A stretch of 35,714 bases of DNA from a virus (lineage: Duplodnaviria > Heunggongvirae > Uroviricota > Caudoviricetes): the IMG/VR virus record IMGVR_UViG_2734482773_000004. One strand, written 5' to 3'. Position 1 is the first letter of the stretch. Every line of letters begins with the position of its first letter. The notes below the pieces were generated by a model, which was not told the DNA's origin, made no database searches, and saw nothing but the letters and a program-made list of their open reading frames with translations. Below are positions 583-28,668 of this stretch, piece after piece. The position numbers and the translations under genes were made by a program.

Positions 583-1596
583 TTACTCTACTGTGGACAC
601 TGTGTGGACACTCTCGGCCTCAGTACCACCTCTTAGCGGATTAAGAGAAATGGCGTCCTGAAGGTACTCTGGCGCAAAATGAGCGTAAACCATCGTTTGC
701 TCAATCCGCGTGTGACCTAGTATCCGTTGTAGCGTAATAATACTTCCTCCATTAATCATGAAATGAGTGGCAAAGCTGTGCCTTAGTGCATGTGTGGCTT
801 GCCCCATTGGCAAATCCGGTTTTATTGCTTTCATTGTTCGTCTGAAGCGAGGGTAATCAGCATCAGGGAATAAAAAACCTCGTTTGTTATCCGCGATCAT
901 TTTGGCAACAGCCTCTGAGATCGGGACGGTGCGTGGTTTGTTTGTTTTCGTTTTAACAAACGTGACGCGGTTATGGATGATATTTTCTGCTTTCAAACGA
1001 GCTGCTTCTCCCCAACGTGCTCCTGTACTCAGGCAAAGAATCGCAATCTTTTTATTGTCGCCGTCAAGTGCTGCAAGCAGTAAGGCAATTTCTTCCTGTG
1101 TGAGATAGCCTGTTTCTGGTTTTTCCTCCTTAAGCCTCTTTGTCCCTCTGATAGGGTGCTCACCAAAGAATAACTCCGCTTCAATCAGGGCTGTAAACAT
1201 GCCGCTAATACATGTTAAATCACGATTGATACTCGAAGGTTTAATACCCTGACTTCTTCGGGTGGCGCAGTACTGGCTGATAAGGGATTTCGTGATTTGA
1301 AATGCGCATGGGTCATTCGTTATTTTTGTGAAGATTTCAATTTTTCCAAGATTAGATTTCCCATGCTCTTCGTGTTTACCCTTTAAATCCCACCAGATCT
1401 GTGTCAGTTCCGACAGACGTCGTTTGTCTGTTGGTTTTGATAGCCATTCTTTATTGTGGTGGTTGTACAACGTGTATTTCTCGAAAGCGACAGCTTCGCT
1501 TTTCTTATCAAACTTCCTACGGATGCGTTTTCCATTACGTCCAGTAGGGCGGATGTCCACTTCATATCGACCATCATCGAGTTTTTTGATTGCCAT
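583..1596 (-). CDS. int: Tyrosine integrase, 337 aa (P2 Int-like)
   Basis: Tyrosine recombinase motifs (TGARWGE, HALRHSFATHF, LGHTRIEQTMVYAHF); adjacent to att core; same length as P2 Int. Confidence 0.93.
   Translation of the reverse strand: MAIKKLDDGRYEVDIRPTGRNGKRIRRKFDKKSEAVAFEKYTLYNHHNKEWLSKPTDKRRLSELTQIWWDLKGKHEEHGKSNLGKIEIFTKITNDPCAFQITKSLISQYCATRRSQGIKPSSINRDLTCISGMFTALIEAELFFGEHPIRGTKRLKEEKPETGYLTQEEIALLLAALDGDNKKIAILCLSTGARWGEAARLKAENIIHNRVTFVKTKTNKPRTVPISEAVAKMIADNKRGFLFPDADYPRFRRTMKAIKPDLPMGQATHALRHSFATHFMINGGSIITLQRILGHTRIEQTMVYAHFAPEYLQDAISLNPLRGGTEAESVHTVSTVE
592..612. promoter_or_regulatory. Putative Int arm-type binding sites, tandem tgtggacact x2
   Basis: Two 10-bp direct repeats with 11-bp period inside the int 3' end; similar TGTGG(A/T)C repeats at 34123..34143 in the other arm. 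Confidence 0.4.
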
Positions 1597-3367: not shown

Positions 3368-3666
3368 TGTCCTGTTCTCATTCAGTTGTATTACTGAATA
3401 ACGCCTTAAAAATCGCCGTTATGAAAAATGGCGATTTGTCTCTTATTCAACTTTGCCTTGATAAAGAAAAACGCGACATAACTGAATCTGTTATCGCGAT
3501 TTATCAGAATGAATTAAACCTCCTGTCTGATGTGGTCAATTTACTTGTTAAACGCGCTGTATTCCACAAGCAAATTTCCTCAGTGGATGAACTGACAAAA
3601 TTAACGACAGAACTTGCCAGTTATTGCGCTGATGTATCCAGGCAACTTAACGATAAAAGGAGCTGA
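3364..3666 (+). CDS. Small early protein (P2 orf81 position), 100 aa
   Basis: ORF overlapping the upstream stop (ATGA-type coupling) in the early operon. Confidence 0.6.
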
Positions 3667-3668
3667 TA

Positions 3669-3893
3669 ATGCCGGACAACGTAGATTTTATTCAGGAACA
3701 ACAGGCTGAATTACTGGAGCGCCAGATTAACGCGGCAAGGGTAAAACATTGCGGTGCTTCTGCGCTGGTTTGCGAAGAGTGTGACGCGCCAATACCTGCT
3801 GCCCGTCGTGCGGCTTACCCGTCAGCCACGCGTTGTGTTTCCTGCCAGTCAGTCTTTGAAGCAAAAAACAAACATTACCGGAGAACGGCATGA
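3669..3893 (+). CDS. TraR/DksA-family C4 zinc-finger protein (P2 orf82 position), 74 aa
   Basis: Two CxxC pairs (CEECDAP ... CVSCQ) with the spacing typical of DksA/TraR zinc fingers. Confidence 0.7.
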   Translation: MPDNVDFIQEQQAELLERQINAARVKHCGASALVCEECDAPIPAARRAAYPSATRCVSCQSVFEAKNKHYRRTA

Positions 3894-4165
3894 GTATTCG
3901 TATTGAAATTGGCGAACGTTATGTCGTTACCAGTGACAGCTTTCAGTTTATTCTCCACGAGAAAAAGAGAGCGGAAAGCGGTAAAAACGCCGGTCAGGAA
4001 TGGTTGGCGGTGGTTGGTTATTATCCGAAATTAAGCCAGCTCGTTTCCGGCCTGATGCATCACGATATTCTGACCGGAAGCGCAAAGTCTTTTGCTGATT
4101 TAAACGCGCAGGTTGAGCAACTCAGCAGGCGTTGTTCAGAGGCTTTTGGCTCATATGGCCGTTAA
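3890..4165 (+). CDS. Small early protein (P2 orf83 position), 91 aa
   Basis: ORF in early operon immediately upstream of A. Confidence 0.6.
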   Translation: MSIRIEIGERYVVTSDSFQFILHEKKRAESGKNAGQEWLAVVGYYPKLSQLVSGLMHHDILTGSAKSFADLNAQVEQLSRRCSEAFGSYGR

Positions 4166-6419
4166 AGCCTCCGGGCGTTTTGTCCCTCCGTCAGCATTTT
4201 CCGCAGGCACCGGTAAGACGTTTGCCGGTGCTTATGCATGGAACGCGCCACGCGAGGCTGTCGGGCGCGAAAGACCCCTTACACGTGACGAGATGCGTCA
4301 GGTGCAAGGTGTTTTATCCACGATTAACCGCCTGCCTTACTTTTTGCGCTCGCTGTTTACTTCACGCTATGACTACATCCGGCGCAATAAAAGCCCGGTG
4401 CACGGGTTTTATTTCCTCACATCCACTTTTCAGCGTCGTTTATGGCCGCGCATTGAGCGTGTGAATCAGCGCCATGAAATGAACACCGAAGCGTCGATGT
4501 TGTTTCTGGCTGAGCGTGACCACTATGCGCGTCTGCCGGGGATGAATGACAAGGAGCTGAAAAAGTTTGCCGCCCGTATCTCATCGCAGCTTTTCATGAT
4601 GTATGAGGAACTCTGCGATGCCTGGGTGGATGCGCATGGCGAAAAAGAATCGCTGTTTACGGATGAGGCGCAGGCGCATCTGTATGGTCATGTTGCTGGC
4701 GCTGCACGTGCTTTCAATATTTCCCCGCTTTACTGGAAAAAATACCGTAAAGGACAGATGACCACGAGGCAGGCATATTCTGCCATTGCCCGTCTGTTTA
4801 ACGATGAGTGGTGGACTCATCAGCTTAAAGGCCAGCGCATGCGCTGGCATGAGGCGTTACTGATTGCTGTCGGGGAGGTCAATAAAGACCGTTCTCCTTA
4901 TGCCAGTAAACATGCCATTCGTGATGTGCGTGCGCGCCGCCAGGCAAATCTGGAGTTTCTTAAATCATGTGACCTTGAAAACAGGGAAACCGGCGAGCGC
5001 ATCGACCTTATCAGTAAGGTGATGGGCAGTATTTCTAATCCTGAAATTCGCCGGATGGAGCTGATGAACACCATTGCCGGTATTGAGCGTTACGCCGCCG
5101 CAGAGGGTGATGTGGGGATGTTTATCACGCTGACCGCGCCGTCAAAGTATCACCCGACACGTCAGGTCGGAAAAGGAGAAAGTAAAACCGTCCAGCTTAA
5201 TCACGGCTGGAACGATGAGGCATTTAATCCGAAGGATGCGCAGCGTTATCTCTGCCGTATCTGGAGCCTGATGCGCACGGCATTCAAGGATAATGATTTA
5301 CAGGTCTACGGTTTGCGTGTCGTCGAGCCACACCACGACGGAACGCCGCACTGGCATATGATGCTTTTTTGTAATCCACGCCAGCGTAACCAGATTATCG
5401 AAATCATGCGTCGCTATGCGCTCAAAGAGGATGGTAACGAAAGAGGAGCCGCGCGAAACCGTTTTCAGGCAAAACACCTTAACCGGGGCGGTGCTGCGGG
5501 ATATATCGCAAAATACATCTCAAAAAATATCGACGGCTATGCACTGGATGGTCAGCTCGATAACGATACCGGCAGGCCGCTGAAAGACACTGCAGCGGCT
5601 GTTACCGCATGGGCGTCAACGTGGCGTATCCCGCAATTTAAAACGGTTGGCCTGCCGACAATGGGCGCTTACCGTGAACTACGCAAATTGCCTCGCGGCG
5701 TCAGTATTGCTGATGAGTTTGACGAACGCGTCGAGGCTGCTCGCGCTGCCGCAGACAGTGGTGATTTTGCGTTGTATATCAGCGCGCAGGGTGGGGCAAA
5801 TGTCCCGCGCGATTGTCAGACTGTCAGGGTTGCCCGTAGCCCGTCGGATGACGTTAACGAGTACGAGGAAGAAGTCGAGAGAGTGGTCGGCATTTACGCG
5901 CCGCATCTCGGCGCGCGTCATATTCATATCACCAGAACGACGGACTGGCGCATTGTTCCGAAAGTTCCGGTCGTTGAGCCTTTGACTTTAAAAAGCGGCA
6001 TCGCCGCGCCTCGGAGTCCTGTCAATAACTGTGGAAAGCTCACCGGTGGTGATACTTCGTTACCGGCTCCCACACCTTCTGAGCACGCCGCAGCAGTGCT
6101 TAATCTGGTTGATGACGGTGTTATTGAATGGAATGAACCGGAGGTCGTGAGGGCGCTCAGAGGCGCATTAAAATACGACCTGAGAACGCCAAACCGTCAG
6201 CAAAGAAACGGAAGCCCGTTAAAACCGCATGAAATTGCACCATCTGCCAGACTGACCAGGTCTGAACGATTGCAAATCACCCGTATCCGCGTTGACCTTG
6301 CTCAGAACGGTATCAGGCCGCAGCGATGGGAGCTTGAGGCGCTGGCGCGTGGAGCGACCGTAAATTATGACGGGAAAAAATTCACGTATCCGGTCGCTGA
6401 TGGTTGGGGGGATTCATAG
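4155..6419 (+). CDS. A: Rolling-circle replication initiator A (HUH endonuclease), 754 aa from ATG 4155
   Basis: HUH-like motif PHWHMMLF and Tyr-containing YIAKYISK; N-terminus MAVKASGRF matches recalled P2 A; the ORF track extends to 4113 but 4155 is the likely start. Confidence 0.9.
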   Translation: MAVKASGRFVPPSAFSAGTGKTFAGAYAWNAPREAVGRERPLTRDEMRQVQGVLSTINRLPYFLRSLFTSRYDYIRRNKSPVHGFYFLTSTFQRRLWPRIERVNQRHEMNTEASMLFLAERDHYARLPGMNDKELKKFAARISSQLFMMYEELCDAWVDAHGEKESLFTDEAQAHLYGHVAGAARAFNISPLYWKKYRKGQMTTRQAYSAIARLFNDEWWTHQLKGQRMRWHEALLIAVGEVNKDRSPYASKHAIRDVRARRQANLEFLKSCDLENRETGERIDLISKVMGSISNPEIRRMELMNTIAGIERYAAAEGDVGMFITLTAPSKYHPTRQVGKGESKTVQLNHGWNDEAFNPKDAQRYLCRIWSLMRTAFKDNDLQVYGLRVVEPHHDGTPHWHMMLFCNPRQRNQIIEIMRRYALKEDGNERGAARNRFQAKHLNRGGAAGYIAKYISKNIDGYALDGQLDNDTGRPLKDTAAAVTAWASTWRIPQFKTVGLPTMGAYRELRKLPRGVSIADEFDERVEAARAAADSGDFALYISAQGGANVPRDCQTVRVARSPSDDVNEYEEEVERVVGIYAPHLGARHIHITRTTDWRIVPKVPVVEPLTLKSGIAAPRSPVNNCGKLTGGDTSLPAPTPSEHAAAVLNLVDDGVIEWNEPEVVRALRGALKYDLRTPNRQQRNGSPLKPHEIAPSARLTRSERLQITRIRVDLAQNGIRPQRWELEALARGATVNYDGKKFTYPVADGWGDS

Positions 6420-6668: not shown

Positions 6669-8885
6669 CTAAGCGGTAACGTTCTCCTCTTCTAGTTCGT
6701 CCATCATTTTTAAATAATGCATTTCGTCACCAGTAGCTGAAAATATTGTTCTCAATTGTTTTAGGTATTTATCTGGGTCTATGTCGCCCATATCAGTAAT
6801 ATTTACCGCATCAGAGTGAGAACCTCTGTTAATGTATCTGTAGAATGCTTTGAAATCACTGTTGCTATCGTCGCGTGCCAACTTTGTTAATTCATCTTGT
6901 AGAGCATCTGTTCTATGAACAAATGCAAAATAATATTCTAGTATGTTTCTCATAATATTAGGTATTATGATTTTGTTTGCTTTGCCATCTTTTGCATCTT
7001 TTAATATTTGCCACAAAGATTGATATTCATTCTGTATGCTGTTTTTTTGTATTTCAGTAATTATACTAAAATCATTTTTCGTTACTCTACCTAGATAATA
7101 GTTTTTCTTAAATAGTTTGTCTTCTCTGCTTTTAGGAGATAGCTTAATAAGTTCATGAAAGAAATAAAGATTGTGAGTAAGGATTAATACCTTCTTTGTT
7201 AATTCATTTTTTATAATGTGGTGATGAATAATTGATGCGATGTCGTAGACATAGTTTTGCGATAGACTAGATATTGGATCGTCAATAACAATAAAAATAT
7301 CCCTGCTATCGGTATCATTTTTATCGGTTTTACCTTTACAGCACTCTAAAAAATAAAGAAACGTTATTAGTGTTTTTTCACCTTCGCTAAGAGATCTATA
7401 AACATTTTGGTTTTTTGTATGCCCTGGTCGAGATATAATGTACATATCTTTTCTTTCTGCATGTTTTTCAATACAAAAACCAGAGATCCCTAGATTTTTT
7501 AAATGGGTGTTTATTGAGTCTATCGTAGAATCAATGTTAGATATTTTATCTCGCAATGCTTTTATTGTGAGATTATTTTCTTTTCCTTGTTGCTCAATAT
7601 TATTTAATTCATCATGAACTTTCTTTTTGATATCAAAGAATTTTTCTTTGTGTTTGGATAAATTCTCTAAATCATCGCTGCAAAAAGCATGGAGAGCCCC
7701 CCAAACTTGTTTTCCGATTTTATTCTCATACTCTTTGAGTTTTTTAACCTTATCATTTATGTCTCTTATTTTTTTGTTAACAGCGTCTATGCTTTCCTGA
7801 ACATGATTTTCTAGTTCTTTATCAATTTCTAATGTAACGCATGTTGATGGATTGTTGATCTTATCAATAATGTTTATTAAATTTTTTTCTGCAATGTTTT
7901 GCAATATTTTAATATTGGAAATAATGATCTCTTTATCTTTCTCATTGATTAGTGCACATGATGATATATTGTTTTGTATTTCGTTAAAATGATATATGGT
8001 ATTTTTCTCATAAACTGACTTTATATCTGAGAGCTGTTTTACTTTCTTTGAATAACTTTCGTCAAATATTGATTTAAGGGCATTTAAAAATTCGTGACTA
8101 ATAGTTTTTTCCTGACAAAACGGACATGTAGAACCGTCTAAATAATGTTCTTTACCTTTTTTTACCCAGTCAAGATTATGAAGTTTATTAATGGTTTCTG
8201 ATAAATAGCTATTGCTTGTATCTATTATAGGGGTTGCTAATGTATTTACATCATCAATTGATGGGGTATATGGGTGTAAAGGAGTTATTAATGCGGTTTC
8301 ATTGTTTCTATTTTCTAATAGTATAGAGTATTCTTTTGCTATATCATTTAAATTAATAAAGGTGATTGGTGAGGATGATTTTATCATCTCAAAAAAAGGT
8401 CTTTTATAGCCAACTTTACCTTTCATTAAGGTTTTTAGTACAGAGTTTCTGATTGGTTCTGTTTTTTTCCAGATCGATTCGATGTATTCATTTTCTTTTT
8501 TTTCCATTTCTGCTTCTAATTTCAATAACACTCCTTTTTTTTGTCTATATTGCTCTGTAAGTTGCTGTTTAATTGCTTCTTTTTTAATTAATTGTTTTTC
8601 AATATCTGCATTTTCTTTACTTAATGTAAAAACACCTTTTTGTTCCTGTGCATTGTAGAAATTATCTTCAATAAATTTAGTGTTGTAAACAAGAGGTTTG
8701 TAATTGTCAAGAAGGGTACATTCACACTCGTTATAATCTGTGTGTGTAGAGTCGTAGAAATAATTTGAAATGGTAGATTTGCCACAACCATTTTGGCCGT
8801 ATAGTATGTTTACTCTTTTTTCAAGATTCAGTATTGTGAAGGCGTCTTTCTTATAACTGGTAACATTTTTTAATCTAAGTTCCAT
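6669..8885 (-). CDS. Cargo: Rad50/RloC-like ABC ATPase with CxxC zinc-hook-like motif and putative C-terminal nuclease domain, 738 aa
   Basis: Walker A GQNGCGKST, long coiled-coil insert with CPFC, signature LSEGEKT, Walker B IFIVIDDP, H-loop LTHN; C-terminal R-x3-E...H pattern; AT-rich; in the A-cos variable locus. Confidence 0.7.
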   Translation of the reverse strand: MELRLKNVTSYKKDAFTILNLEKRVNILYGQNGCGKSTISNYFYDSTHTDYNECECTLLDNYKPLVYNTKFIEDNFYNAQEQKGVFTLSKENADIEKQLIKKEAIKQQLTEQYRQKKGVLLKLEAEMEKKENEYIESIWKKTEPIRNSVLKTLMKGKVGYKRPFFEMIKSSSPITFINLNDIAKEYSILLENRNNETALITPLHPYTPSIDDVNTLATPIIDTSNSYLSETINKLHNLDWVKKGKEHYLDGSTCPFCQEKTISHEFLNALKSIFDESYSKKVKQLSDIKSVYEKNTIYHFNEIQNNISSCALINEKDKEIIISNIKILQNIAEKNLINIIDKINNPSTCVTLEIDKELENHVQESIDAVNKKIRDINDKVKKLKEYENKIGKQVWGALHAFCSDDLENLSKHKEKFFDIKKKVHDELNNIEQQGKENNLTIKALRDKISNIDSTIDSINTHLKNLGISGFCIEKHAERKDMYIISRPGHTKNQNVYRSLSEGEKTLITFLYFLECCKGKTDKNDTDSRDIFIVIDDPISSLSQNYVYDIASIIHHHIIKNELTKKVLILTHNLYFFHELIKLSPKSREDKLFKKNYYLGRVTKNDFSIITEIQKNSIQNEYQSLWQILKDAKDGKANKIIIPNIMRNILEYYFAFVHRTDALQDELTKLARDDSNSDFKAFYRYINRGSHSDAVNITDMGDIDPDKYLKQLRTIFSATGDEMHYLKMMDELEEENVTA

Positions 8886-9388: not shown

Positions 9389-10423
9389 TCAGTCGTTGTC
9401 AGTGTCCAGTGAGTAGTTTTTAAAGCGGATGACCTCCTGACCGAGCCAGCCGTTTATTTCCCGAATCCTGTCCTGTAACGGGATAAGCTCATTGCGGACA
9501 AAGACCTTTGCCACTTTCTCAATATCACCCAGCGACCCGACGTTCTCCGGCTTGCCGCCCATCAACTGAAAGGGGATGCGGTGCGCGTCCAGCAGGTCTG
9601 CGGCACTGGCTTTTTTGATATTAAAAAAATCGTCCTTCGTCGCCACTTCACTGAGCGGGATAATTTTAATGCCGTCGGCTTTTCCCTGTGGGGCATAGAG
9701 AAACAGGTTTTTAAAGTTGTTGCGGCCTTTCGACTTCACCATGTTTTCGCGAAGCATTTCGATATCGTTGCGATCCTGCACGGCATCGGTGACGTACATG
9801 ATGTATCCGGCATGTGCGCCGTTTTCGTAATACTTGCGGCGGAACAGCGTGGCCGATTCATTCAGCCAGGCAGAGTTAAGGGCGCTGAGATATTCCGGCA
9901 GGCCGTACAGCTCCTGATTAATATCGGGCTCCAGCAGGTGAAATACGGAGCCGGGCGTGAAAGGTGTCGGCTCGTTGAAGGACGGTACCCACCAGTAAAC
10001 ATCCTCCTCCACACCACGGCGGGTATATTTTGCCGGTGAGGTTTCCAGTCTGATGACCTTACCGGTGGTGCTGTATCGCTTTTCCAGAAACGCATTACCG
10101 AACACCAGAAAATCCAGCACAAAGCGGCTGAAATCCTGCTGGGAAAGCCACGGATGCGGGATAAATGTCGAGGCCAGAATATTGCGTTTGACGTAAATCG
10201 GGGAGCTGTGATGCACGGCAGCACGCAGGCTTTTTGCCAGACCGGTAAAGCTGACCGGTGGCTCATACCATCTGCCGTTACTGATGCACTCAACGTAATC
10301 CAGAATGTCACGGCGGTCGAGTACCGGCACCGGCTCGCCAAAGGTGAATGCTTCCATTTTCGGGGCGCTGGCGGTCATTGTTTTTGCCGCAGGTTGCGGT
10401 GTTTTCCCTTTTTTCTTGCTCAT
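9389..10423 (-). CDS. Q: Portal protein Q, 344 aa
   Basis: Position next to cos, divergent from O; length equal to P2 Q. Confidence 0.92.
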   Translation of the reverse strand: MSKKKGKTPQPAAKTMTASAPKMEAFTFGEPVPVLDRRDILDYVECISNGRWYEPPVSFTGLAKSLRAAVHHSSPIYVKRNILASTFIPHPWLSQQDFSRFVLDFLVFGNAFLEKRYSTTGKVIRLETSPAKYTRRGVEEDVYWWVPSFNEPTPFTPGSVFHLLEPDINQELYGLPEYLSALNSAWLNESATLFRRKYYENGAHAGYIMYVTDAVQDRNDIEMLRENMVKSKGRNNFKNLFLYAPQGKADGIKIIPLSEVATKDDFFNIKKASAADLLDAHRIPFQLMGGKPENVGSLGDIEKVAKVFVRNELIPLQDRIREINGWLGQEVIRFKNYSLDTDND

Positions 10424-21830: not shown

Positions 21831-24149
21831 ATGAGCACAAAATTCAGAACCGTTATCACCACTGCCGGTGCAGCAAAGCTGGCAGCGGCAACCGCACCGG
21901 GAGGGCGGAAGGTCAACATTACCACGATGGCCGTCGGGGATGGCGGTGGTAAATTGCCTGTCCCGGATGCCGGACAGACCGGGCTTATCCACGAAGTCTG
22001 GCGACATGCGCTGAACAAAATCAGCCAGGACAAACGAAACAGTAATTATATTATCGCAGAGCTGGTTATTCCGCCGGAGGTGGGCGGTTTCTGGATGCGT
22101 GAGCTTGGCCTGTACGATGATGCAGGAACGTTAATTGCCGTGGCGAACATGGCCGAAAGTTATAAGCCTGCCCTTGCCGAAGGCTCAGGGCGTTCGCAGA
22201 CCTGCCGCATGGTCATCATCGTCAGCAGTGTGGCCTCAGTGGAGCTGACCATTGACACCACAACGGTGATGGCAACGCAGGATTACGTTGATGACAAAAT
22301 TGCAGAGCACGAACAGTCACGACGTCACCCGGACGCCTCGCTGACCGCAAAAGGTTTTACTCAGCTAAGCAGCGCGACCAACAGCACGTCTGAAACACTG
22401 GCCGCAACGCCGAAAGCGGTAAAGGCCGCCTATGACCTTGCTAACGGGAAATATACTGCGCAGGATGCCACCACGGCGCGAAAAGGCCTTGTTCAGCTCA
22501 GTAGTGCGACCAACAGCTCGTCTGAAACGCTCGCCGCAACGCCGAAAGCGGTAAAGGCAGCATATGACCTTGCTAACGGGAAATACACTGCACAGGACGC
22601 CACCACCGCGCGAAAAGGCCTTGTTCAGCTTAGTAGCGCCACCAACAGCGATTCTGAAACGCTTGCGGCAACACCAAAGGCGGTTAAGACAGCGTATGAC
22701 CTTGCTAACGGGAAATACACTGCACAGGATGCCACCACTGCGCGAAAAGGTCTTGTCCAGCTAAGTAGCGCCACCAACAGTGATTCTGAAACCCTCGCGG
22801 CAACGCCAAAAGCAGTGAAGTCTGCCTATGACAATGCTGAAAAACGTCTTCAGAAAGATCAGAACGGTGCGGATATTCCGGGAAAGGATACCTTCACGAA
22901 AAATATCGGAGCCTGTCGTGCTTATAGCGGCGCTTTGAGCACTGAAGCCGGAAACTGGACAACCGCTCAGTTTATTGAATGGCTGGATTCCCGTGGTGCA
23001 TTTAATCATCCGTACTGGATGTGCAAAGGCTCCTGGTCATATGCAAATAACAAAATCATTACGGATACCGGATGTGGTGATATCCACCTGGCTGGTTGTG
23101 TCGTCGAGGTCATGGGAACTAAATCTGCAATCACTATCCGAGTGACCACGCCGACAACATCAAGCGGTGGCGGTACAACCAGCGCGCAATTCACTTACAT
23201 TAATCATGGGGACGGCTACTCCCCCGGCTGGCGTCGTGACTGGAATCGTCAGGGCGACTCAATGACCGGAACGATTAATCAGGATGGCGGAAGCCAGAAT
23301 GCCTATATGTCTACGGCCTTATGTTCAGGCACCAGAGGCGGCAAAAAATATCTCAGAAAGTTTCGTGGTGGAGAAGGAGACACTATCTGGCATGAAACAG
23401 TACAGGGCGGGGTAGTTCGCTGGGCGACTGGTAATACTGATGCTCAGGAAGAATTATCACTCAGCTCCGCTTATGGTCTCCGTTCAAGAGGTGAGATTAC
23501 ATCAAGCAGTGCTAATGGTCTGCGCATTGCTTATGGCAATTATGGATTCTTTATCAGGAATGATGGCAGCAGCACTTATTTTATGTTGACTAAATCAGGT
23601 GACAGATTAGGCACTTATAATAATTTAAGACCACTGATTATAAATGATGCCACGGGTGCTGTATCAATGGGGCATGGCCTGAGTGTTACTGGTGATATTG
23701 CCTCAAGTACCAAAGTACGTGCCGGTAGCGGGAAAAAATTCACGGTCAGCAGCAGTAATACATCCACGAAGGAAGCCGCATTCAATTTGTGGGGCAACTC
23801 AAGTCGTCCGGTGGTGGCTGAATTAGGTGATGATGCAGGCTGGCATTTTTACAGTCAGAGAAATACAGATAACAGCATCACTTTTGCTGTTAACGGGCAG
23901 GTATCACCATCTAACTATAGTAATTTTGATTCACGCTATGTCCGGGATATCCGGCTTGGTGGTGCTGCCACATACAAACCTGCGAACAATGGCATGACAT
24001 GGACACATCAGGCACCGTCCGGGTGTGTATATTCCGGCATTATTGTTCAGGATACCGGCTCAAACTCTGCCGATAACATTGGTGGCGTATATTACAGACC
24101 GGTGCAGAAATACATTAACGGGACTTGGTATAACGTGGCGCAGGTATAA
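21831..24149 (+). CDS. H: Tail fibre protein H, 772 aa, with four tandem 44-aa repeats and a divergent AT-rich C-terminal domain
   Basis: Position after I; about 100 aa longer than recalled P2 H (669 aa), roughly the size of the repeat expansion; C-terminal half lies in lower-GC DNA. Confidence 0.88.
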   Translation: MSTKFRTVITTAGAAKLAAATAPGGRKVNITTMAVGDGGGKLPVPDAGQTGLIHEVWRHALNKISQDKRNSNYIIAELVIPPEVGGFWMRELGLYDDAGTLIAVANMAESYKPALAEGSGRSQTCRMVIIVSSVASVELTIDTTTVMATQDYVDDKIAEHEQSRRHPDASLTAKGFTQLSSATNSTSETLAATPKAVKAAYDLANGKYTAQDATTARKGLVQLSSATNSSSETLAATPKAVKAAYDLANGKYTAQDATTARKGLVQLSSATNSDSETLAATPKAVKTAYDLANGKYTAQDATTARKGLVQLSSATNSDSETLAATPKAVKSAYDNAEKRLQKDQNGADIPGKDTFTKNIGACRAYSGALSTEAGNWTTAQFIEWLDSRGAFNHPYWMCKGSWSYANNKIITDTGCGDIHLAGCVVEVMGTKSAITIRVTTPTTSSGGGTTSAQFTYINHGDGYSPGWRRDWNRQGDSMTGTINQDGGSQNAYMSTALCSGTRGGKKYLRKFRGGEGDTIWHETVQGGVVRWATGNTDAQEELSLSSAYGLRSRGEITSSSANGLRIAYGNYGFFIRNDGSSTYFMLTKSGDRLGTYNNLRPLIINDATGAVSMGHGLSVTGDIASSTKVRAGSGKKFTVSSSNTSTKEAAFNLWGNSSRPVVAELGDDAGWHFYSQRNTDNSITFAVNGQVSPSNYSNFDSRYVRDIRLGGAATYKPANNGMTWTHQAPSGCVYSGIIVQDTGSNSADNIGGVYYRPVQKYINGTWYNVAQV
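22350..22877 (+). repeat. Four tandem 132-bp (44-codon) in-frame repeats within H
   Basis: aaagg repeat anchors at 22350, 22482, 22614 and 22746 (period exactly 132); protein unit is approximately KGLVQLSSATNS-SETLAATPKAVKAAYDLANGKYTAQDATTAR. Confidence 0.9.
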
Positions 24150-24152
24150 TTT

Positions 24153-24680
24153 ATGCAGCATTTGATAAATATAACGGCAGGTAATCCAAAAACGGTTGAA
24201 CAATATCAATTGACAAAGGATTTTGATGTTGTCTGGTTTTTTACAGAAGATGGTAAGAACTGGTACGAAGAACAAAAGTATTTTGCTGATGACACGATAA
24301 AAATAGCGTACGACAAAGATAATATCATCCGCTATGTGGAAAAGGATGTGACAGCTATCAGACCGGATGGATTAAGTGTGGTTGAAGTGGCGGATATTAC
24401 TGCTAACCGACGGGCGGATATTTCAGGGGGCTGGATGTTTAAGGACGGCAAAGTGATTAAACGCATTTATACGGCAGAGGAATTACAGCAGCAGGCAGAA
24501 ATTCGGAAAGCCAGACTTCTTGCAGATGCTGAATCCGTGATTTTGCCGCTGGAGCGCGCGGTCAGACTGAACATGGCAACAGATGAGGAGCGTAGCCGAC
24601 TGGAAGCATGGGAGCGCTACAGCGTTCTGGTCAGTCGTGTGGATCCTGCAAATCCTGAATGGCCGGAAATGCCGCAATAA
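24153..24680 (+). CDS. G: Tail fibre assembly chaperone G, 175 aa
   Basis: Immediately downstream of H; length as P2 G; AT-rich 5' portion. Confidence 0.85.
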
Positions 24681-24849
24681 GTTGTATGAGCTCTGGTGTG
24701 AGCTTACATATCTATGGCACAGAGTAAAGCCTAATCTGACAGTCAGCTCTGTGCCAAAAGCAGACGTTCAAGTTATACTGTCCATTTCTGCAATCAGTCA
24801 CCTGCAACTATGCGGCCAATTGCAAAGATGGCGGTAATAAACAATAGTT

Positions 24850-24885
24850 GATTTGCCGGCGTGGTCGTATAAATGCTGGCAAATC
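24850..24885 (-). terminator. Possible terminator hairpin downstream of the minus-strand cargo gene
   Basis: gatttgccggc (24850..24860) pairs with gctggcaaatc (24875..24885) with one mismatch; moderately T-rich following sequence on the minus strand. Confidence 0.3.
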
Positions 24886-24925
24886 CCCTCTTGACGTAAT
24901 TCCCAGCCCCATCCGGACACGATAG

Positions 24926-25630
24926 TCATTTTGTTTTCATATCGTTTTTTAAGCTCTTCTGTTTGAACTCCAACCCATTAATATTCTCCATGCGAAAGTA
25001 AGTCAGCTGATGAATCACTTTCCCGTTAACCACGTTCCATGTAAAAACATTTTCGTCATACACTTTTGCTATTGCATATTCTTTATTATTCATGATAAAT
25101 ACTGTGAATTCGTTGCCGTGAACAGATGATCTACCCAGTCCTATAAAGGTAAGGGAAAAGAAGAAAGCAATGGCTGCACCGTTGAGAGCCTGAATACCAA
25201 ACTCTCTGATATTCCCTCTATCAAAGGAAGCATTTTTCTTTTCAACATGGATAGGTATCCACTGGCTCAGCAAGTGTAAAAGAACGAGCGCATTAAAAAC
25301 AAAAAGCAGCAGAATGTCGAGTGGAATGTTTAGCATGGAATATGCACCGGCCACATATACTACGCTTATCCCTAAATGTGCAGCGGCTCTTTTATGTTTA
25401 TCATCCTTCGCCCATATAAGAAAAGCAGTGGATATCGTCAATAAAGGAAATGAAAAAAGACATATACTCATAATGTCATTGCTTATCGTGGGAATGCTGA
25501 GAGTTATTAAATCCAACGGTATATTCAGCTCACTGGCGACCCCCCTTTCATAAAAATATACGGCGGCATAAAAAGCTGCCGTCAGGCCCGCTACAAATAA
25601 AGATTCTTTTTTTAAGATATAGTTGTACAT
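24926..25630 (-). CDS. Cargo: polytopic membrane protein (about 4 predicted TM helices) with small C-terminal soluble domain, 234 aa
   Basis: Hydrophobic segments at roughly residues 11-27, 45-70, 83-120 and 150-168; AT-rich; minus strand within the G-FI variable locus. Confidence 0.65.
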   Translation of the reverse strand: MYNYILKKESLFVAGLTAAFYAAVYFYERGVASELNIPLDLITLSIPTISNDIMSICLFSFPLLTISTAFLIWAKDDKHKRAAAHLGISVVYVAGAYSMLNIPLDILLLFVFNALVLLHLLSQWIPIHVEKKNASFDRGNIREFGIQALNGAAIAFFFSLTFIGLGRSSVHGNEFTVFIMNNKEYAIAKVYDENVFTWNVVNGKVIHQLTYFRMENINGLEFKQKSLKNDMKTK

Positions 25631-26157
25631 AACATTCCTGTAATGCTTTTTTCAGCATATCAAATTGCCTGACTGGCCCGACAACTCATTTCATAACGAA
25701 CTAAATGTTCGCAAAATGCAGGGAGTCAGAGACTTCTTTTCGGTCTGATTAATACTCCCAAACCACCGCGATGTCCCTTACACTGAAGAGAATGCGATAG
25801 CATCAGAAATAATTTATCAGTTCAGATTCGTTGAGTTCTATGACTATGAGCACGTGTATTTCCTTGATTGCCGTTCCATCACGACAGGTCCGCAACGTGC
25901 TAGAAATAGATATTATAACATTTGTATGTCCTAATTTCCTAGAGCTGTGAGCAGATCAACGTCATTTCGTCCTGACCGGCCCCCTATACTTCCTACAGTT
26001 CTGATGTTGCTGCTGGGCGAAGCTGAAATCGAAGGAGGGAATACTCTTATTTAACGTTAGCGGAGAATGTGTTTCGACAAAATCCGCTAATTTTACCACA
26101 AAAAATGAGGGAATGGGCTAAGCCCAATTAAGCTTATTAAACAAATAATCTGAAGAT

Positions 26158-27123
26158 TTATTTGTTGGCATTTTTCTCTTTTCCGAATTTGTATTTTAGT
26201 TCATCTACTGTAATGATATCTATCTCAATTGGGAAATTGGCTTTACGCTTGATTTTTGAAATCAGCTTCATGAATGAGTTCGCTTCATTATAATTTTTTG
26301 CCGTGATTACATAGACAATATAGACTCTAAAGCCTTTAAAATGCCTCCAGCTCTCGTTGATCAAATCTAGGGTGCTAAGAATATTAGCGCTCTTCAGCGG
26401 ACTAAACACATCGATTTCCAAGAAAATAATTTCACCAGTTAAAACTCCATTGGAAATTGGAGGGTAATAAGCGCCATCAAAATTGTGATAACCGAATTCA
26501 TTTCTCATCTCGGTTTTGTCAACATCAAAACTTACATCAAGCTTAGATTCAGCATATTGAAAAGCCATATATGATACTTCATTACCGAGTTTTTTAAGCA
26601 TTTTCTCCTTCTTGTCAACAGTCTCAGAGACAGAATTCAAGGGGGAGGTCTTTAATGATGGGATAATGGTGCCTACCGAGAAATATTTGTCATCTTGTTT
26701 AGAGGACTCACTTTCTTGTCGACTGTTTTCATCTTTACCAGCAAACTCATTATTTTTAGGAGTCATTTCCTCTTCTAATATAGATACGTTTGGCACATCA
26801 TTTTTATCTAATGGGGAGGTAATGGATATACCCTGCAGACCTATCAAAGTCATATAGTTTTTCTCATCCGCAAAATCACTGGGAGCATAAAGGGACTCCG
26901 GCTTCTTATGGAGAGTGAAAAAAAATAGACTAACTAAGAATGTAGGGAAGAACATTAGAAAAAATATATATATTTTTTGATTTGGCTCGGATATCCATGG
27001 GAGTATTGCTGTACCGCTTACCTCTGCTAGCCCAGCAAACATTGCAATAATAGTTAAGGGGTTTTTTACTAATGAAATAGCACCAGCCATTGTCATATCC
27101 TTATAAAAATTCAAATAGCTCAT
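26158..27123 (-). CDS. Cargo: membrane-anchored protein (2 N-terminal TM helices, acidic/Ser-rich linker, C-terminal domain of about 150 aa), 321 aa
   Basis: N-terminal hydrophobic helices, low-complexity linker (EEEMTPKNNEFAGKDENSRQESESSKQDDK), AT-rich; minus strand within the G-FI variable locus. Confidence 0.65.
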   Translation of the reverse strand: MSYLNFYKDMTMAGAISLVKNPLTIIAMFAGLAEVSGTAILPWISEPNQKIYIFFLMFFPTFLVSLFFFTLHKKPESLYAPSDFADEKNYMTLIGLQGISITSPLDKNDVPNVSILEEEMTPKNNEFAGKDENSRQESESSKQDDKYFSVGTIIPSLKTSPLNSVSETVDKKEKMLKKLGNEVSYMAFQYAESKLDVSFDVDKTEMRNEFGYHNFDGAYYPPISNGVLTGEIIFLEIDVFSPLKSANILSTLDLINESWRHFKGFRVYIVYVITAKNYNEANSFMKLISKIKRKANFPIEIDIITVDELKYKFGKEKNANK

Positions 27124-27385
27124 TGCGACACACGCTCACCAGAGCGTGAAATTTGTTCATATCTTAATTATTAAAACCTACTGAGTCCACAATGTCATTT
27201 TATCTCGCTGGAGTCCAGAGTGACCAGTTCCCAGTGATTGACAATTAATGTTGTTAGCAATGCCTGCATCTCGCTCAAAGCAGACTGTCAGATTTGACAA
27301 AGTTTTGGCTACGTAATTTGTCAGTTGGAAACTGAGTGAGTGCAAATCATGACAGGTAGGCGGATTACCCGCCTTTTCTTTGTCT

Positions 27386-27395
27386 GTTGTTTCAT
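27386..27395. promoter_or_regulatory. Candidate late-promoter motif TGTTGTTTCA upstream of FI
   Basis: Variant of the decamer found upstream of O and V, followed by CTGACCAG similar to the V upstream CTGACAGA. Confidence 0.35.
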
Positions 27396-27477
27396 CCACT
27401 GACCAGCCAGGTCAAATAGCGTCTCATGCTCTGCACAACAGAAAATAGTTGCACCCATTAACCACGGAGTTAAACGG

Positions 27478-28668
27478 ATGAGTGACTATCATCACGGCGT
27501 GCAGGTGCTGGAGATTAACGACGGCACCCGCGTCATTTCCACCGTATCCACCGCCATTGTTGGCATGGTCTGCACGGCCAGCGATGCGGATGCGGAAATC
27601 TTCCCCCTCAATAAACCGGTGCTGATTACCAATGTGCAGAGCGCAATTGCAAAGGCCGGTAAAAAAGGCACGCTGACGGCGTCGTTGCAGGCCATCGCTG
27701 ACCAGTCAAAACCGGTCACCGTTGTTGTGCGCGTGGAAGACGGCACCGGCGACGACGAAGAAACGAAACTTGCGCAGACCGTTTCCAATATCATCGGCAC
27801 CACCGACGAAAACGGTCAGTACACCGGACTGAAAGCCCTGCTGGCGGCGGAGTCGGTAACCGGTGTTAAACCGCGTATTCTCGGCGTGCCGGGACTGGAC
27901 ACCAAAGAGGTGGCTGTTGCACTGGCATCAGTCTGTCAGAAGCTGCGCGCTTTCGGATATATCAGCGCATGGGGCTGTAAGACCATTTCCGAGGTGAAAG
28001 CCTACCGCCAGAATTTCAGCCAGCGTGAGCTGATGGTCATCTGGCCGGATTTCCTCGCATGGGATACGGTCACCAGTACCACCGCCACCGCGTATGCCAC
28101 CGCCCGTGCGCTGGGTCTGCGCGCTAAAATCGACCAGGAGCAGGGCTGGCATAAAACGCTGTCCAATGTCGGGGTGAACGGTGTTACCGGCATCAGCGCA
28201 TCCGTCTTCTGGGATTTGCAGGAGTCCGGCACCGATGCTGACCTGCTTAACGAGTCAGGCGTCACTACGCTGATTCGCCGCGACGGTTTCCGCTTCTGGG
28301 GTAACCGTACCTGCTCCGATGACCCGCTGTTCCTCTTTGAAAACTACACCCGCACCGCGCAGGTGCTGGCCGACACGATGGCTGAGGCGCACATGTGGGC
28401 GGTGGACAAGCCCATCACCGCAACGCTGATTCGCGACATCGTTGACGGCATCAATGCCAAATTTCGTGAGCTGAAAACAAACGGCTATATCGTGGATGCG
28501 ACCTGCTGGTTCAGCGAAGAATCCAACGATGCGGAAACCCTCAAGGCCGGAAAACTGTATATCGACTACGACTATACCCCGGTGCCTCCTCTCGAAAACC
28601 TGACCCTGCGCCAGCGTATTACCGATAAATACCTGGCAAATCTGGTCACTTCGGTTAACAGCAATTAA
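27478..28668 (+). CDS. FI: Tail sheath protein FI, 396 aa
   Basis: Position and length as P2 FI. Confidence 0.92.
   Translation: MSDYHHGVQVLEINDGTRVISTVSTAIVGMVCTASDADAEIFPLNKPVLITNVQSAIAKAGKKGTLTASLQAIADQSKPVTVVVRVEDGTGDDEETKLAQTVSNIIGTTDENGQYTGLKALLAAESVTGVKPRILGVPGLDTKEVAVALASVCQKLRAFGYISAWGCKTISEVKAYRQNFSQRELMVIWPDFLAWDTVTSTTATAYATARALGLRAKIDQEQGWHKTLSNVGVNGVTGISASVFWDLQESGTDADLLNESGVTTLIRRDGFRFWGNRTCSDDPLFLFENYTRTAQVLADTMAEAHMWAVDKPITATLIRDIVDGINAKFRELKTNGYIVDATCWFSEESNDAETLKAGKLYIDYDYTPVPPLENLTLRQRITDKYLANLVTSVNSN

Follow-up and report, generated by a model that had tools for sequence, protein, structure and literature searches.

The window considered here, that is, the whole 35,714-nucleotide stretch of the IMG/VR virus record IMGVR_UViG_2734482773_000004, is a complete P2-like prophage that carries two minus-strand genes, called A and B below, between its tail-fibre assembly gene G and its tail sheath gene FI. 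What is new is the recognition that A belongs to a large, unannotated, prophage-borne family of proteins in which a membrane hairpin is combined with a PD-(D/E)xK nuclease-fold or a winged helix-turn-helix (wHTH) head, and this family makes a good candidate, as yet unproven, for the exclusion of other phages. The reading that we put forward, tentatively and with rather less than even confidence, is that the two genes form a cassette of two independent modules, in which A would serve as a prophage-encoded exclusion factor acting through a membrane-tethered nuclease-fold head and B would be separate. An anti-phage function of A and B is suggested by their context, and we infer both the DNA ligand of A and its mechanism.

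A membrane hairpin with a nuclease-fold head

26158..27123, minus strand: gene A, an open reading frame (ORF) of 321 aa; likely start at ATG 27090 (M12), giving 310 aa
26833..27090, minus strand: residues 12-97 of A, conserved module with two transmembrane (TM) helices (2-TM module; NPLT..AEVSGT..FP..LYAPSDFxDE), from the invariant columns of 35 sequences and phrog_26238
26623..26832, minus strand: residues 98-167 of A, acidic disordered linker (predicted local distance difference test score, pLDDT, <50; isoelectric point, pI, 4.46)
26161..26622, minus strand: residues 168-321 of A, PD-(D/E)xK nuclease-fold domain with D216, E236 and D238, from the predicted fold and the motif

The initial annotation had given A as a protein of 321 aa. 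The ORF is of that length, and the likely product is a 310-aa protein starting at M12, since AGGA precedes ATG 27090 and the same start is found in RefSeq and in most homologues. The architecture proposed at the time, with two N-terminal TM helices, an acidic Ser-rich linker and a domain of about 150 aa at the C-terminus, agrees with hydropathy and with an AlphaFold2 (AF2) model built on a 35-sequence alignment. In this model, two long N-terminal hydrophobic helices (22-43 and 46-73) are followed by the Ser/Glu-rich linker of 70 residues (98-167; median linker pI in the family, 4.5) and by a confidently predicted C-terminal domain (168-316, pLDDT about 90). The hairpin is flanked by lysines (K20 before, HKK after) and its connecting loop is short and acidic, which suggests that both termini of A are cytoplasmic. 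The C-terminal elements run in the order helix-helix-four strands-helix-strand-helix-strand-helix, and residues 168-321 contain the alpha-beta-beta-beta-alpha-beta core of the PD-(D/E)xK fold; the domain is confidently modelled as a PD-(D/E)xK nuclease fold, a feature that the initial annotation had overlooked. Foldseek searches with A against PDB and BFVD returned weak matches (E>1e-2 for the relevant ones) of the same fold class, and a profile search of PDB sequences returned none.

The 2-TM module is 55-66% identical in Hymenobacter, Achromobacter, Colwellia and many metagenomes, the remainder of the protein being divergent. It holds 18 residues that are invariant in the 35 sequences, located in the NPLT motif, at E34 inside the first helix, at Q49, at F59-P60 and in LY.P.D past the second helix. 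The only family match of A is phrog_26238, a PHROG of unknown function, which covers the N-terminus (E 2.7e-22).

In the head, the family motif reads FDG-x12-14-(V/I)E(V/I)K(Y/F), with K as the consensus at position 238, and by a regex census the motif ends in ExK or DxK in 103 of the 150 top representatives. At the residue equivalent to this lysine (the last of codons 236-238, window 26410..26418), the Enterobacter copy has N and other close relatives have K or R. In the clade to which the window's A belongs, moreover, about 8 residues are inserted between the D motif and the E motif.

Size, spread and contexts of the A family

Searching 1.84 billion representatives with a profile yielded 2,868 clusters at 50% identity with E<=1e-3, 900 of them with E<=1e-30, and most clusters are 260-320 aa long with the full architecture. 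The 100,044 species genomes scanned gave 156 matches, distributed over Firmicutes, Bacteroidota, all proteobacterial classes, Verrucomicrobiota, Planctomycetota, Ignavibacteria and one genome of the Candidate Phyla Radiation (CPR). From Firmicutes to CPR, the module family NPLT..AEVSGT..FP..LYAPSDF is unmatched by Pfam, NCBIfam and PADLOC, none of whose models matches A as a whole either, and the literature that we searched contains no mention of the A or B proteins.

When the 68 genome loci in which the gene was callable were sorted crudely by motif, about half had the nuclease-fold motif, others had other C-termini, several of them winged-helix domains of the IclR, TrmB and MarR types, and a few had nothing but the membrane module; the same three classes are also present in phages. 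Because the other partners of the membrane module are winged-helix DNA-binding domains, DNA appears as the common theme of the heads in this family.

A relative of A is encoded by 91 IMG/VR contigs, and the contexts of the family are mostly accessory positions of temperate phages. In four lambdoid prophage contigs the gene lies on the opposite strand in the interval from cIII to N, a Phytobacter prophage has a 71%-identical homologue in its nin region, and an Achromobacter prophage has a member just upstream of its HNH and terminase genes. Gene 41 of Pseudomonas phage F116 (L009 4004..4915) is a member situated between the portal and capsid genes, and it is absent from the close relatives phiC725A and LKA5 (PMC5217972). 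In all 69 evaluable viral loci (L023-L102), the A-family gene is AT-richer than its own phage contig, with a median difference of -12.6 percentage points in guanine-plus-cytosine (GC) content.

We also surveyed 300 ORFs around 26 chromosomal A-family loci, where family matches partly overlap on the same protein. About 20 neighbours are markers of mobile genetic elements, including six integrase matches, four S24 repressors, three VapE, four Toprim_3 and two resolvases. About ten are plausibly of defence type (AriA/AbiL-type ATPases, AbiJ, NsnA, KwaA, PD-T4-2_A, PDC-S32, PDC-S64 and methyltransferases), a number that is suggestive but stands without a background control. PADLOC matches to mad3 and mad8 among the neighbours were discounted as probable cross-matches of ABC ATPases.

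The G-FI slot and the cassette within it

24153..24680, plus strand: tail-fibre assembly protein G, left flank (Pfam Caudo_TAP, E 6e-34)
24742..24768, no strand: left 27-bp terminal inverted repeat (GTCAGCTCTGTGCCAAAAGCAGACGTT) of an inverted-repeat pair; the homology of two non-phage copies begins exactly there
27259..27285, no strand: right 27-bp terminal inverted repeat of the pair, the shared cassette end
27478..28668, plus strand: tail sheath FI, right flank (Pfam Phage_sheath_1, Phage_sheath_1C, Gp18_domIII_N)

The G-FI interval contains exactly two sizeable ORFs, A and B, both on the minus strand, and the GC content of the island is 0.35-0.41 as against 0.55-0.61 in the flanking late genes. 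The initial annotation was therefore right to see here two AT-rich genes of foreign composition, opposite in orientation to the late genes and lying in the Z/fun variable slot of P2. Its view of both products as membrane proteins is upheld by prediction, and its failure to place either gene in a known defence family is matched by the lack of any Pfam, NCBIfam or PADLOC v2 match.

The hotspot itself is already known. In P2, fun(Z) fills the G-FI slot, likewise on the minus strand (P2 record), where it is cargo of the lysogenic-conversion kind, and the annotation of that record describes the gene as non-essential and states that, when cloned, it blocks T5. Two variable P2 loci are cited by Rousset et al., of which the gpA-gpQ locus is the one analysed systematically, and GenBank AJ512676 annotates inverted-repeat-flanked cargo at the G-FI locus. 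Among 5,426 complete E. coli genomes, about 1,000 have the slot flanks with other cargo (FRG, HNH, DUF4145, SMEK and others), and only two have the A+B cargo, which corresponds to two of the 1,011 flank-carrying genomes; in RefSeq, two E. coli genomes have both genes annotated as hypothetical proteins. None of the 116 viral contigs that have the left boundary site of the slot holds this cargo, and the G-FI gap in these contigs measures 1.2 to 4.5 kb. Like a prophage moron or accessory gene, the cargo is sporadically present and deviant in composition, and its expression signals are at the level of consensus matches.

The A+B island is a discrete cassette of 2,544 bp (2.5 kb; 24742..27285) whose ends are 27-bp inverted repeats of the pattern GTCNGCT..GCNGAC.TT. 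The same left-site core directly follows G in P2 and in P2-EC30. We found the cassette in three contexts, namely the E. coli P2 slot, the chromosome of Enterobacter quasiroggenkampii, where it sits between ycgJ-like and lysE-like genes (L002 5805..8350), and a chromosome from JGI sample 3300036803, where it adjoins a DJ-1/PfpI gene (L018 4345..6889). All three copies have identical endpoints (24742 and 27285) and 90-93% nucleotide identity, and beyond the ends their flanks are unrelated; therefore, they represent one cassette that moved and not a repeated independent association of the two genes.

In L018 (639..6889), the same 27-bp sites occur at 9 further positions in four intergenic clusters, and they enclose the DJ-1/PfpI gene as a second cassette (3381..4326) that directly abuts the A+B cassette. 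This arrangement resembles an array of gene cassettes lined up in tandem, each bounded by the sites; no recombinase for the array was identified. The possibility that the sites are repetitive extragenic palindromic (REP) elements of E. coli was rejected, since a genome containing such sites has about one of them and a viral contig has one.

The rest of the prophage comprises an integrase (583..1596), gpA (4113..6419), the portal (9389..10423) and the late genes up to tail gene D, and the right end of the window holds a host Peptidase_U32 gene. The other hotspot, from gpA to portal, contains a 738-aa AAA_13 ATPase with a PrrC-like C-terminus (6669..8885, minus strand), which matches the PADLOC candidate family PDC-S06 (E 1.6e-254). 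Within the tail-fibre gene H, the translation of 22400..22800 shows three to four nearly identical copies of a protein repeat in tandem (KGLVQLSSATNS.SETLAATPKAVK.AYDLANGKYTAQDATTAR).

Gene B

24926..25630, minus strand: gene B, ORF of 234 aa; AGGA 5 nt before the ATG; ratio of nonsynonymous to synonymous substitution rates (dN/dS) 0.21-0.25; 17 homologous clusters

That B is a membrane protein of 234 aa, as first described, is borne out, and the four TM helices counted then give way to about five, followed by a five-strand beta region (167-234), according to hydropathy and a low-confidence AF2 secondary structure. From the charge distribution of the loops, the beta region is probably periplasmic. 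No family of known function in Pfam, NCBIfam, PADLOC or PHROGs corresponds to B. A profile search delimits its own family to 17 clusters, none of them named and all from Enterobacterales or Aeromonas; two B homologues bear the precomputed Pfam label PF27470, which was not among the Pfam models scanned.

Homologues of B are found apart from A in several settings. In the other P2 hotspot (portal to gpA), one adjoins a SIR2-STAND gene in Serratia and another, in a different prophage, adjoins an ApeA HEPN gene; a third lies beside an AAA_15/AAA_21 ATPase in Aeromonas, and others reside on plasmid-like contigs with ParA and integrase genes. This is the habitat of a mobile accessory gene, and B is most likely a separate, independent exclusion-type moron that encodes a membrane protein.

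Expression signals and selection

25631..26157, minus strand: spacer of 527 bp, by which A and B read as two transcription units
27197..27226, minus strand: sigma-70-like promoter candidate upstream of A (TGGTCA-18-TAAAAT), from a consensus scan

The scan of the island for promoter consensus gave site counts that were not above the shuffled expectation. Within the spacer, upstream of B, lies TGTTATAAT (25920-25912), an extended -10-like element. A terminator-like hairpin (AGGCGGATTACCCGCCT plus a T-run) is situated past the island (27358..27374, plus strand), and in P2 the V-operon terminator is placed before fun(Z). Because the hairpin of the window comes after the island, transcription of the late genes H-G may read antisense through B and A. 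An Rfam scan of the island produced only a chance snoRNA match.

Comparison of the three diverged copies gave dN/dS values of 0.35-0.53 for A and 0.21-0.25 for B, and this purifying selection marks both as real genes and not chance ORFs. It also tells against the idea that A and B are decaying remnants without function, which we consider scarcely credible: the loss of the catalytic lysine and the rarity of the cargo would fit it, but the frames are intact, Shine-Dalgarno sites are present and the A family is large and conserved. The hairpin-coding part of A (26833..27090) has a synonymous divergence (dS) of 0.04-0.06 among the cassette copies, compared with 0.13-0.28 in the C-terminal part, and its nucleotide identity is 96-98%, which suggests recombination or a constraint at the nucleotide level.

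How A may act, and the alternatives

According to the reading that we prefer, A would be made in the lysogen and inserted in the inner membrane as a two-helix hairpin with both ends in the cytoplasm. The 70-residue acidic, flexible linker would keep the PD-(D/E)xK head in the cytoplasm, close under the membrane, where the head would bind, and in most family members cut, phage DNA emerging at the inner membrane during injection. Confinement to the membrane, possibly aided by the acidic linker, would spare the chromosome. The overall logic would resemble that of SNIPE, with unrelated domains.

Several observations speak against this scenario. The window's A keeps D216 and E236 but has D238 at the position of the canonical lysine (E236-I-D238), so that the complete catalytic motif is not present, and the F116 gene 41 product (F116p41) lacks both D and K (C-terminal motif S..E-V-F). 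Conservation in A is highest in the membrane module rather than in the nuclease fold, and the module with LYAPSDF also occurs as stand-alone proteins of 101-125 aa in phages and bacteria. Many housekeeping genes are found among the 300 neighbouring ORFs, in a survey that had no background control. The same kind of 27-bp sites bounds the DJ-1/PfpI gene, and membership of such a cassette is therefore by itself no sign of defence. For B, the AF2 model (10 sequences) is unreliable, with a pLDDT of 49. Since the lysine is replaced and F116p41 is without D and K, catalysis is possibly dispensable or absent in the window's A. Active enzymes with a third residue other than lysine do exist, as in BamHI and BglII, and with this precedent activity of the window's A may be possible in spite of D238.

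Examples of the stand-alone module include L010 4001..4312 (Elizabethkingia phage EKP1), L036-L038 and L052-L055, among others. Because it occurs alone, the module would have a function of its own, and this suggests that it is more than an anchor. The unusual conservation of the hairpin points to a specific membrane partner or activity.

The strongest competitor, unlikely in our estimate, is a Rex-like abortive infection within a single chain. Here the 2-TM module would be the effector, forming a pore or depolarising the membrane, and the nuclease-fold or winged-helix head would be only a sensor, whose binding of phage DNA or replication intermediates promotes oligomerisation. It is kept alive by the module being the most conserved part (the invariant E34 lies within its first TM helix) and occurring alone, and by the missing catalytic lysine; the exchange of the C-terminus for wHTH domains, the degenerate catalytic residues in both the window copy and F116p41, and the location of lambda RexAB and sieB in the same immunity-region neighbourhood agree with it as well. 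On the other hand, the D..ExK residues are kept in most family members, which argues for selection on catalysis, each chain has just two helices, and there is no sequence similarity to SieB, the sole exclusion protein compared directly in this context.

Less probable again is that the genes are non-defence cargo with a role in host physiology or the phage life cycle, such as anchoring DNA to the membrane, lysogenic conversion of the envelope or the timing of lysis. The DJ-1/PfpI gene of L018 shows that the same sites can bound a non-defence gene, about 43% of the viral A-family genes run in the same direction as both of their neighbours, some of them inside late operons, the membrane-tethered wHTH variants resemble membrane-bound regulators, and no PADLOC model was matched. 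Against this stand the strong bias to prophage accessory positions, the AT-richness and the sporadic distribution of the family. Furthermore, the slots occupied are those of known exclusion genes, and the other hotspot of the window also carries a defence candidate.

That A and B together make one two-component membrane system, a sensor plus an effector with both genes needed, is in our judgement quite improbable. The genes are adjacent with a spacing of roughly 525 bp in three unrelated genomic contexts and both products are predicted membrane proteins, but all three contexts contain the same recent cassette and thus amount to one evolutionary event. Of 300 loci fetched, 171 encode a relative of A and 10 a relative of B; A is without B in 167 of the former and B is without A in six of the latter, and the four loci with both (L001, L002, L018 and L019) belong to one cassette lineage. 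The 71%-identical Phytobacter homologue is solitary and shares 26003..27262 of the window, that is, A plus its own upstream and downstream flanks and none of B, the homology stopping at 26003 inside the spacer. The separate occurrences of B in the other P2 hotspot, on plasmid-like contigs and beside other genes, and the 527-bp spacer between the two genes, point in the same direction. Conserved co-occurrence of A and B across diverged homologues, as an obligate two-gene system would show, was not found, and the single module that the initial annotation had envisaged is not supported. Two independent moron-type genes are the best reading, and they are together only via a shared mobile cassette, which warns against taking neighbours in hotspot cargo for "systems".

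On a wider reading, the A-type family would consist of single-protein phage-exclusion factors, in which the membrane module is itself active (in sensing the entry site or as effector) and exchangeable heads (PD-(D/E)xK, winged helix or none) give specificity, and the slot cargo would move as 27-bp-bounded cassettes that form tandem arrays in some enterobacterial chromosomes. We regard this generalization, taken as a whole, as doubtful.

Comparison with known systems

P2 Fun(Z) occupies the same G-FI slot on the same minus strand, but it is 528 aa long and has no similarity to A or B; homology of either protein to Fun(Z) was rejected (BLASTP E>0.5 for both). The lambda gene sieB lies at the same end of the cIII-N interval as the A-family genes of the four lambdoid contigs, adjoining N on the opposite strand. 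SieB, a small membrane protein, is not known to have a nuclease fold, and homology of A to lambda/P22 SieB was likewise rejected (hhalign probability 0.2%, no Pfam SieB match). Lambda RexAB is also an exclusion system of the prophage immunity region, coupling a cytoplasmic sensor to a membrane effector. It differs in consisting of two proteins, and in A both roles would be fused in one chain; the Pfam scan at E<=1 gave only chance-level matches for A or B, RexA and RexB not having been compared directly.

No family in PADLOC-DB v2.0.0 matches A or B at E<=1. The PD-(D/E)xK nucleases of known defence systems, such as Hachiman HamA, Can2/Card1 and the nuclease domain of Avs4, are cytoplasmic and regulated by helicase, cyclic-nucleotide or STAND partners. 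In contrast to these soluble nucleases, with which it has no sequence-family match, A has no partner domain and is predicted to be tethered to the membrane.

The closest parallel in layout is SNIPE, in which a single TM helix is combined with a DUF4041 DNA-binding domain and a GIY-YIG nuclease. SNIPE is bound to the membrane constitutively and cuts lambda DNA while this is being injected, and removal of the TM helix makes it toxic to the chromosome (Saxton et al., bioRxiv 10.1101/2025.11.03.685801). Like SNIPE, A joins in one polypeptide a membrane anchor at the N-terminus and, as far as its predicted topology goes, a nuclease-type domain in the cytoplasm, and it would be constitutively placed where phage DNA enters, with spatial confinement proposed as a possible rule for telling self from non-self. 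A differs in its 2-TM hairpin and its PD-(D/E)xK fold, and in the Pfam scan neither DUF4041 nor GIY-YIG matched it at E<=1; A was therefore rejected as a member of the SNIPE family, with which it shares none of the domains. One further point against our reading belongs here: the nuclease of SNIPE is its best-conserved region and the N-terminus its most variable one (bioRxiv 10.1101/2025.11.03.685801), and A reverses this pattern, with an invariant membrane module and an exchangeable C-terminus. If A does protect against phages, membrane-tethered defence of the nuclease type would have a second example, structurally unrelated to SNIPE; guarding the site of DNA entry would then be a general strategy, with SNIPE as one case of it, and thousands of unnamed prophage proteins from many bacterial phyla would gain a function.

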